Assembly (NCBI RefSeq): GCF_044324785.1
Contig: NZ_CP172127.1
Origin: Escherichia coli
GTDB lineage: Bacteria > Pseudomonadota > Gammaproteobacteria > Enterobacterales > Enterobacteriaceae
DNA: 64,000 nt
Strand: one strand, 5' to 3'
Shown here: positions 13,702-14,040 of the stretch, piece by piece
Numbering within the stretch: the first letter of the stretch is position 1
How the letters are laid out: every line of letters begins with the position of its first letter
Notes under the pieces: generated by a model
What the model saw: the letters and a program-made list of their open reading frames with translations, nothing else
Databases searched by the model: none
What the model was told of the DNA's origin: nothing
Position numbers and translations under genes: made by a program

Positions 13702-13863
13702 GATTTTTCCTCTTTCACATAGTGGGTTCCACAGCAAAGAGACGCGGAACCCCGGAGTTGTTTAGGTATCCGGATGAACAACCAGACCGCAGCCGTGGCG
13801 TTGCATCGGATGAGATGGCGTATAAGTTCTACCTTTTGGTAAGACATGTCAACCCGAAATCTA

Positions 13864-13880
13864 AAATTGGTTAACCACAT
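13864..13880. promoter_or_regulatory. Candidate UxuR/ExuR operator (palindrome AAATTGGTTAACCA) in the uxuA-gntP divergent region
   Basis: Near-perfect palindrome with core TGGTTAACCA, typical half-site symmetry for a GntR-family regulator; ~165 bp upstream of uxuA. Confidence 0.5.
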
Positions 13881-13971
13881 CACAAGAATTTCACTCTCAC
13901 GGTTGTTGCTGCAAATTGCAGCAAAGGGTAATCGATGGTTATTGATCAGAGGATGTGACATTCATCGCAAC

Positions 13972-13987
13972 AATGGTTGACCAATTT
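13972..13987. promoter_or_regulatory. Second UxuR-type box (AATGGTTGACCAATTT) upstream of gntP
   Basis: Imperfect palindrome related to the first box, ~55 bp upstream of the gntP ATG. Confidence 0.45.
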
Positions 13988-14040
13988 ACATAACATGTCG
14001 CCCAAAATAACAACGGTTCAACCAGGTAAGGTAAAACGTT

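Follow-up and report, generated by a model that had tools for sequence, protein, structure and literature searches.

What controls the DNA between uxuA and gntP in Escherichia coli, and how many of its palindromes take part in that control? The region governs the entry of fructuronate and glucuronate to the Ashwell pathway, which has been linked to the ability of E. coli to colonise the gut. An earlier note, made from the letters of the sequence, described three palindromes here. Two were said to have the symmetry of GntR-family operators, one in front of each gene, and these were read as a sign of shared UxuR/ExuR control. The third was left without a partner.

The region spans positions 13702 to 14040 of the window, by which is meant the whole stretch of 64,000 nucleotides that was analysed. 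This is exactly the gap between two divergent genes, with the start codon of uxuA at 13701 on the minus strand and that of gntP at 14041 on the plus strand. The genes involved are:

12517 to 13701, minus strand: uxuA, mannonate dehydratase coding sequence (NCBIfam TIGR00695 equivalog, 790.8 bits; RefSeq annotation)
14041 to 15384, plus strand: gntP, fructuronate/gluconate transporter coding sequence (NCBIfam NF007459 equivalog, 906 bits; annotation)
9988 to 10761, minus strand: uxuR, the cognate GntR/FadR-family repressor (NCBIfam NF007588 equivalog, 583.8 bits)

The names that had been given to uxuA and gntP are correct, as NCBIfam matches and RefSeq annotation agree on both. UxuA shares 99.5% of its amino acids with K-12 UxuA, and UxuB has an NCBIfam subfamily match (fructuronate reductase). 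The uxuR gene sits 3 kb from the uxuA–gntP intergenic region, and exuR lies outside the window.

A 451-bp query around the region was searched against 5426 complete E. coli genomes. The locus, annotated as uxuA/gntP, was found in 5404 of these, and strain VCSW7 is 100% identical over the query. In an alignment with K-12 MG1655, the 339-bp intergenic region has 5 differences, and 0 of these are within the three palindromes. This is therefore a well-studied divergent hexuronate promoter region that was already known, and the window reproduces its K-12 sequence.

At the K-12 locus, control of uxuAB and gntP by UxuR/ExuR and CRP is established, decades-old knowledge. According to the literature, UxuR binds the spacer and keeps both transcription units repressed, and fructuronate or glucuronate releases it. 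In genomic SELEX, UxuR had a single target, the gntP/uxuA spacer, and glucuronate lowered the binding (PMC5934670). A lacZ fusion showed that UxuR represses the uxuAB promoter directly (PMC9369180), and induction of both uxuAB and gntP is seen on glucuronate and also when uxuR is deleted (PMC10016265). The gntP gene is also listed within the UxuR regulon.

All three palindromes of the earlier note are there: AAATTGGTTAACCA at 13864-13877, AATGGTTGACCAATTT at 13972-13987 and TTGCTGCAAATTGCAGCAA at 13906-13924. The first two are better defined as 18-mers, each with one good flank and a 10-bp core whose symmetry is perfect or nearly so. They are called box 1 and box 2 below, and a third box of the same type stands elsewhere in the window:

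13864 to 13881, no strand assigned: box 1, UxuR/ExuR-type operator AAATTGGTTAACCACATC on the uxuA side, agreeing with 13/16 specified consensus positions
13970 to 13987, no strand assigned: box 2, UxuR/ExuR-type operator ACAATGGTTGACCAATTT on the gntP side, agreeing with 14/16 specified consensus positions
10917 to 10934, no strand assigned: third UxuR-type box AAACTGGTCAACCAAATA upstream of uxuR, found by consensus scan and identical in K-12

An operator of this type was defined by a TGGT-NN-ACCA inverted-repeat core within an A/T-rich 18-mer, with consensus AAATTGGTnnACCAATTT. Boxes 1 and 2 match this consensus, which bears out the GntR-family symmetry seen before uxuA and gntP. Both have the core motif, are located at hexuronate promoters and leave a phylogenetic footprint. 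Box 1, when reverse-complemented, agrees with box 2 at 13 of 14 positions.

Searching the 64-kb window for AAATTGGTNNACCAATTT with at most 3 mismatches gives 3 matches, which are box 1, box 2 and the site upstream of uxuR at 10917-10934. This means that every match in 64 kb stands upstream of uxuA, gntP or uxuR. Shuffled windows have 0.71 matches on average, and at least 3 are reached in 6 of 100 shuffles. Written as AAATTGGTATACCAATTT, the consensus serves as a functional UxuR operator in a fructuronate biosensor (PMC8092373).

The obvious comparison is with the UxuR/ExuR operators of the K-12 hexuronate (Ashwell pathway) regulon (uxuAB, gntP, uxuR, exuT, uxaCA, uxaB, uidA). This is the same locus, with boxes that are base-for-base identical, the same consensus AAATTGGTnnACCAATTT, and the cognate repressor encoded nearby. 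Nothing of substance differs, as all 5 changed positions are outside the boxes.

The boxes are also conserved. Loci with gntP were retrieved from 80 species genomes, and among these gntP and uxuA are divergent neighbours in three Escherichia lineages, eleven Citrobacter species, Klebsiella spallanzanii and one Enterobacteriaceae metagenome-assembled genome (MAG). The resulting spacer alignment holds 16 sequences from 4 genera, all with divergent gntP-uxuA, and in every genome found to have this arrangement the box cores are conserved at the same places. The alignment has two conserved blocks. One holds box 1 and the adjacent promoter block; the other holds the CRP site, box 2, a TAACAT hexamer and a leader element. 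The DNA between box 1 and box 2 is not alignable across the genera of these 16 sequences.

The box 1 core reads TTGGTTAACCA identically in Escherichia and Citrobacter, GGTAAACC in K. spallanzanii and GGTTGACC in the MAG; 2 of the 18 box 1 columns vary within Escherichia. In box 2, GGTTrACCAAT is invariant in 16/16 aligned sequences. UxuR-type boxes also precede the gntP orthologues of Edwardsiella and Yersinia, where uxuA was not found in the 3 kb upstream, and the gntP-side layout of CRP site, box and TAACAT recurs in Edwardsiella.

On sequence evidence, then, it is well supported that boxes 1 and 2 are UxuR/ExuR-type operators, one per gene. The idea that both promoters share UxuR/ExuR control draws support from the consensus match, the conservation across genera and the published UxuR binding and repression. 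The earlier note had named non-conservation across Enterobacteriaceae as what would undo its reading. This does apply to the third palindrome, which is not conserved outside Escherichia, but boxes 1 and 2 are conserved.

UxuR is not the only input. The region also contains a CRP site, a possible second one and candidate promoter elements:

13954 to 13969, plus strand: CRP site for gntP, TGTGACATTCATCGCA, a TGTGA-N6-TCACA dyad (motif scan 9/10)
13869 to 13884, minus strand: second, CRP-like site GGTTAACCACATCACA, overlapping box 1 (motif scan 8/10)
13991 to 13996, plus strand: candidate gntP −10 hexamer TAACAT, proposed from its conservation
13813 to 13859, minus strand: conserved uxuA promoter block (conserved in 16 sequences from 4 genera; 6/47 columns variable within Escherichia)

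The reverse complement of TGTGACATTCATCGCA is a MEME-predicted site under a CRP ChIP-seq peak in the gntP/uxuA spacer of ETEC H10407 (PMC4287617). The site at 13954-13969 thus combines a score of 9/10 with an identical sequence under a ChIP-seq peak, and it is conserved across genera, Edwardsiella included. Box 2 starts at the base directly after it. CRP SELEX has gntP and uxuA as targets and reports multiple CRP sites in the gntP-uxuAB spacer (PMC3105977). The CRP-like site at 13869-13884 could be one of these, and its score is not above chance, given that 99 of 300 random sequences reach at least 8/10.

The TAACAT hexamer is conserved in the 16 aligned sequences with a single exception (L004, TAATAT), and it is present in Edwardsiella anguillarum. 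Variants are TAGCAT in E. hoshinae and TAACGT in metagenome contig L167. With TAACAT as the −10 element, the gntP start would be near 14003; box 2 would then span about −33 to −16, with CRP near −41.5.

On the other side, the core promoter of uxuA must be within the conserved block 13813-13859, downstream of box 1. The block holds TTGACA (13853 down to 13848) and TATACG (13824 down to 13819). These may be the uxuA promoter hexamers, although this assignment is not a confident one. A consensus sigma-70 scan of the intergenic region returned no promoter, which fits activator-dependent promoters but confirms nothing.

The position of box 2 between the CRP site and TAACAT suggests repression by occlusion. 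For gntP, CRP at 13954-13969 would act near −41.5, the class II activator position, and UxuR on box 2 would occupy the gap between CRP and TAACAT and block RNA polymerase. For uxuA, box 1 overlaps the CRP-like site, so that UxuR/ExuR may exclude CRP, cooperate with box 2, or both. The gntP side resembles class II CRP-dependent promoters with a repressor site between CRP and −10, in that a ChIP-seq-supported CRP site scoring 9/10 adjoins box 2 and is followed by TAACAT. It differs from established class II CRP promoters in that the −41.5 position depends on a predicted start site.

It is highly likely, then, that 13702-14040 is the divergent uxuAB/gntP promoter region with two UxuR/ExuR operators and an adjoining CRP site, and that the third palindrome lies outside this conserved core. 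For reference, the K-12 MG1655 coordinates are:

4551456 to 4551473: box 1
4551413 to 4551431: third palindrome
4551368 to 4551383: CRP site
4551350 to 4551367: box 2
4551303 to 4551313: gntP leader element

Three features are not obviously covered in the literature examined: the third palindrome, the operator spacing of 104-106 bp and the TGGT-NNN-ACCA element in the gntP leader. Each of these is a modest refinement of a known circuit and not a new kind of system.

The spacing comes first. The centres of the two boxes are separated by 106 bp in Escherichia and by 104-105 bp in all 11 Citrobacter species. Larger centre distances are 159 bp (15.1 turns), 219 bp (20.9 turns) and, in the MAG, 239 bp (22.8 turns).

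It is possible, though doubtful, that UxuR/ExuR oligomers bridge boxes 1 and 2, loop the spacer of about 105 bp and so shut both promoters cooperatively. The spacer, third palindrome included, would then matter mainly through its length. A distance of 104-106 bp is about 10 helical turns, kept even though the DNA between the boxes cannot be aligned, and the 159 and 219 bp variants are also close to whole turns. In addition, the boxes are mirror images, with the better half-site of each facing outward. However, the 239 bp of the MAG are out of phase, and with three independent length changes only, the phasing is not significant (p of about 0.1 by the author's estimate). A scarcity of insertions and deletions could by itself explain the constant spacing. 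There is also a variant with a 46-bp deletion (metagenome contig L179), and evidence of UxuR tetramers on DNA was not found. The conserved spacing of the two UxuR/ExuR-type operators is suggestive of looping or cooperative binding, without being significant.

Between these operators lies the third palindrome, called P3 here:

13906 to 13924, no strand assigned: P3, TTGCTGCAA-A-TTGCAGCAA, a perfect 9+1+9 palindrome that is Escherichia-specific

The description of P3 as near-perfect undersold it. The 9-nt arms are fully complementary and only the central A is unpaired. How unusual this is depends on where one looks. With arms of 9 nt or more and a spacer no longer than 4 nt, perfect palindromes are found in 3 places in the 64-kb window, against a random mean of 1.45, so window-wide P3 is within chance. 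For the 339-bp region alone, the chance of a palindrome of this class is about 0.01. The other two in the window resemble terminator hairpins.

Within E. coli P3 is stable. Of 5426 complete E. coli genomes, 5308 (about 98%) have the perfect 19-mer intact, in one copy. No E. coli genome has a second perfect copy, the 64-kb window has no other copy either, and the core TGCAAnTTGCA has no second copy in 1.47 Mb of comparison loci.

Beyond E. coli, P3 is absent from the aligned Citrobacter, Klebsiella and MAG spacers. Metagenomes scanned with the CRP and box 2 module as anchor yielded 113 usable contigs, and these added Escherichia lineages. Besides E. coli, Escherichia sp. MOD1-EC7003 has a perfect P3. 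In the other lineages of the genus it has 1-4 symmetry-breaking changes, none of them compensated on the other arm, with 8/9 symmetric pairs kept in E. albertii, 7/9 in the E69-like lineage, 7/9 in L201 and 6/9 in L167. A query with the E69-type spacer found no complete E. coli genome of the E69-like lineage.

Still, P3 changes less than what surrounds it. Within Escherichia, 4 of its 19 columns vary, against 29/53 in the flanking spacer (Fisher p = 0.016) and 6/52 in the known sites. Counting substitutions in three outgroup lineages, P3 has 3/57 and the flanks 34/159 (p = 0.004). Two of the four variable P3 positions, 13909 and 13921, are mirror partners, as expected of a dyad-symmetric site. 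P3 sits about 90-100 bp upstream of both predicted start sites, in the fastest-evolving part of the spacer.

Could P3 then be the operator of a further dimeric regulator, an Escherichia-specific input to one or both promoters? This is unlikely, but there is something to be said for it. It is a perfect 9+1+9 dyad of a kind that is rare by chance in 339 bp, it forms an island of conservation in a variable Escherichia spacer, it is intact and single-copy in nearly all of the E. coli genomes, and two of its variable positions are symmetry partners. Other inputs have been reported for the region as well, namely OxyR/H2O2 effects and an RpoH-holoenzyme SELEX peak. On the other hand, P3 is missing from Citrobacter, Klebsiella and the MAG although both promoters are conserved there. 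In related species neither the site nor its symmetry is conserved, and the uncompensated decay of the symmetry to 8, 7, 7 and 6 of 9 pairs counts against an operator, though P3 is less variable than its flanks. So do its distance from both predicted starts, the window-wide frequency of such palindromes and the single-copy core. Motif comparisons and copy searches turned up neither a fit to any motif checked nor a recurrence, and an exact-sequence literature search for the three palindromes returned irrelevant matches only.

As to the other inputs, secondary sources report OxyR sites at uxuA and gntP and repression of the uxuAB promoter by H2O2 (PMC6389858, PMC3578941). A scan with the four-ATAG OxyR consensus found nothing at P3. 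The best OxyR score was 13/20 at 13822-13858, and at least that was reached in 20 of 300 random sequences. A methylation or OxyR link to the region was also sought in PMC4444293, where the genes are merely listed within a deletion. Genomic SELEX with RpoH (sigma-32) holoenzyme gave a peak of intensity 5.0 in the gntP/uxuA spacer (PMC5493296). This maps to about 14030 (K-12 old coordinate 4549330), near the gntP start and not to P3, and inspection of the spacer by eye found no convincing sigma-32 promoter.

Several other identities for P3 were considered and rejected. It has the TTGCA of a sigma-54 promoter, but its −24 element reads TTGCTG instead of TGGCAC, without the GG. As an intrinsic terminator it fails because no terminator-like site was found, and there is no T run after P3 on either strand. 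There is no Rfam match at E up to 1 that would indicate a structured RNA. In comparisons by eye, which are indicative rather than a test, P3 does not fit Cra, PurR, CytR, Fis, Lrp, NsrR, KdgR, IclR, LexA or sigma-54; these fail on half-site spacing or key bases.

By analogy, the closest likeness is to the tetO-type operators of TetR-family repressors. The tetO operator is of odd length, 9+1+9, and P3 is likewise a 19-bp perfect dyad with one central base pair. Unlike such operators, P3 has no sequence similarity to any operator checked and is not conserved beyond Escherichia. The TetR-family UidR, which acts upstream of uidA, is not a match: that upstream region has a UxuR-like box and other palindromes, and nothing resembling P3.

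The best estimate is that P3 is incidental or weakly constrained sequence and not a shared operator. That it has no dedicated function is somewhat better than an even bet, a lineage-specific protein-binding site is a clearly smaller possibility, and a role in spacer length or structure accounts for the rest.

One E. coli-like metagenome contig, L179 (uxuA 98% identical), lacks P3 altogether. Its 46-bp deletion is equivalent to about 13878-13923, brings box 1 right up against AAGGGTAATCG and also takes away TCACA, one half of the CRP-like site. Either natural variation or a faulty assembly could account for it.

The remaining feature is in the gntP leader:

14024 to 14034 (context 14020-14037), no strand assigned: conserved palindromic element CGGTTCAACCA of the TGGT-NNN-ACCA type

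In the window its core is CGGT-TCA-ACCA, and several Citrobacter species have AATGGTTCAACCAAA. The leader sequence GTTCAACCA is almost invariant in Escherichia and Citrobacter, and reads ATTCAACCA in the MAG and GGTTAAACCA in K. spallanzanii. At the position aligned with this element, Edwardsiella anguillarum has a canonical UxuR box with 2-nt spacing, AAATTGGTTGACCAAATG. The gntP upstream regions of Yersinia and Budvicia have boxes with 3-nt spacing (TTGGTCCGACCAA, TTGGACTGACCAA), TTGGTCCGACCAA being found in Yersinia.

The consensus of PdhR and LldR has a 3-nt spacing. The leader element, TGGT-NNN-ACCA, is by analogy like these GntR boxes, and is unlike them in that E. anguillarum has a 2-nt-spaced UxuR box at the aligned position. 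Judging by its letters and their alignment, the leader element may be a third operator of the UxuR/ExuR type, with atypical spacing, or else a UxuR site that is derived or has decayed. The fuller picture, in which P3 is an operator that gives Escherichia a third input besides UxuR/ExuR and CRP, and in which separately the leader at 14024-14034 is a third UxuR/ExuR-type site, is quite improbable.

It is hardly credible that boxes 1 and 2 are operators not of UxuR/ExuR but of another GntR regulator of the FadR subfamily, such as PdhR, LldR or LgoR: the TGGT..ACCA core is common to FadR-subfamily sites, and the window's UxuR also weakly matches the LldR, PdhR, NanR and GlcC models, but the boxes have 2-nt spacing against the 3-nt of PdhR/LldR, the gntP/uxuA spacer is the sole UxuR SELEX target, uxuAB and gntP are derepressed on uxuR deletion, and UxuR-type boxes co-occur with hexuronate genes across genera.

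The surroundings of the UxuR/ExuR-controlled promoter region gave some further observations. Upstream of uxuR, the box at 10917-10934 is followed by a weaker half-palindrome, TTGATTGACCAGT, at 10940-10953. The “uxuR promoter” operator quoted in PMC8092373, AAATTGGTATACCAATTT, differs from the window and K-12 sequence, and appears to be an idealised consensus. The uxuB-uxuR intergenic region also holds a REP-type repeat, GCCGGATGCGGCGTGAACGCCTTATACGGCCTAC, at 10800-10835, which K-12 has with one difference.

As for the two other perfect palindromes, one has 12-bp arms, CAGAGCCTGCCA-T-TGGCAGGCTCTG, and is located at 15393-15417, starting 9 bp past the gntP stop. It separates the convergent genes gntP and fimH, is probably a terminator hairpin that works in both directions, and has a REP-like sequence after it at about 15441-15486. 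The other has 14-bp arms, AATTCTCCCGGTGA-TAG-TCACCGGGAGAATT, and lies at 46188-46218 between the minus-strand open reading frames 45183-46001 and 46237-47091. This too is probably a terminator hairpin.

Metagenome contig L167 has a uxuA that is 98.4% identical to that of the window, yet it has the most divergent spacer seen. In this contig gntP was not found, and the sequence diverges just before the gntP start, which suggests recombination, or deletion or replacement, at gntP in this lineage.

Finally, the Citrobacter loci (L005-L013, L039 and L050) have a conserved ATGTAAACATGTAACGCAA immediately upstream of the gntP CRP site, where Escherichia has GGTTATTGATCAGAGGA. This is possibly a site confined to the genus, by analogy with P3 in Escherichia.
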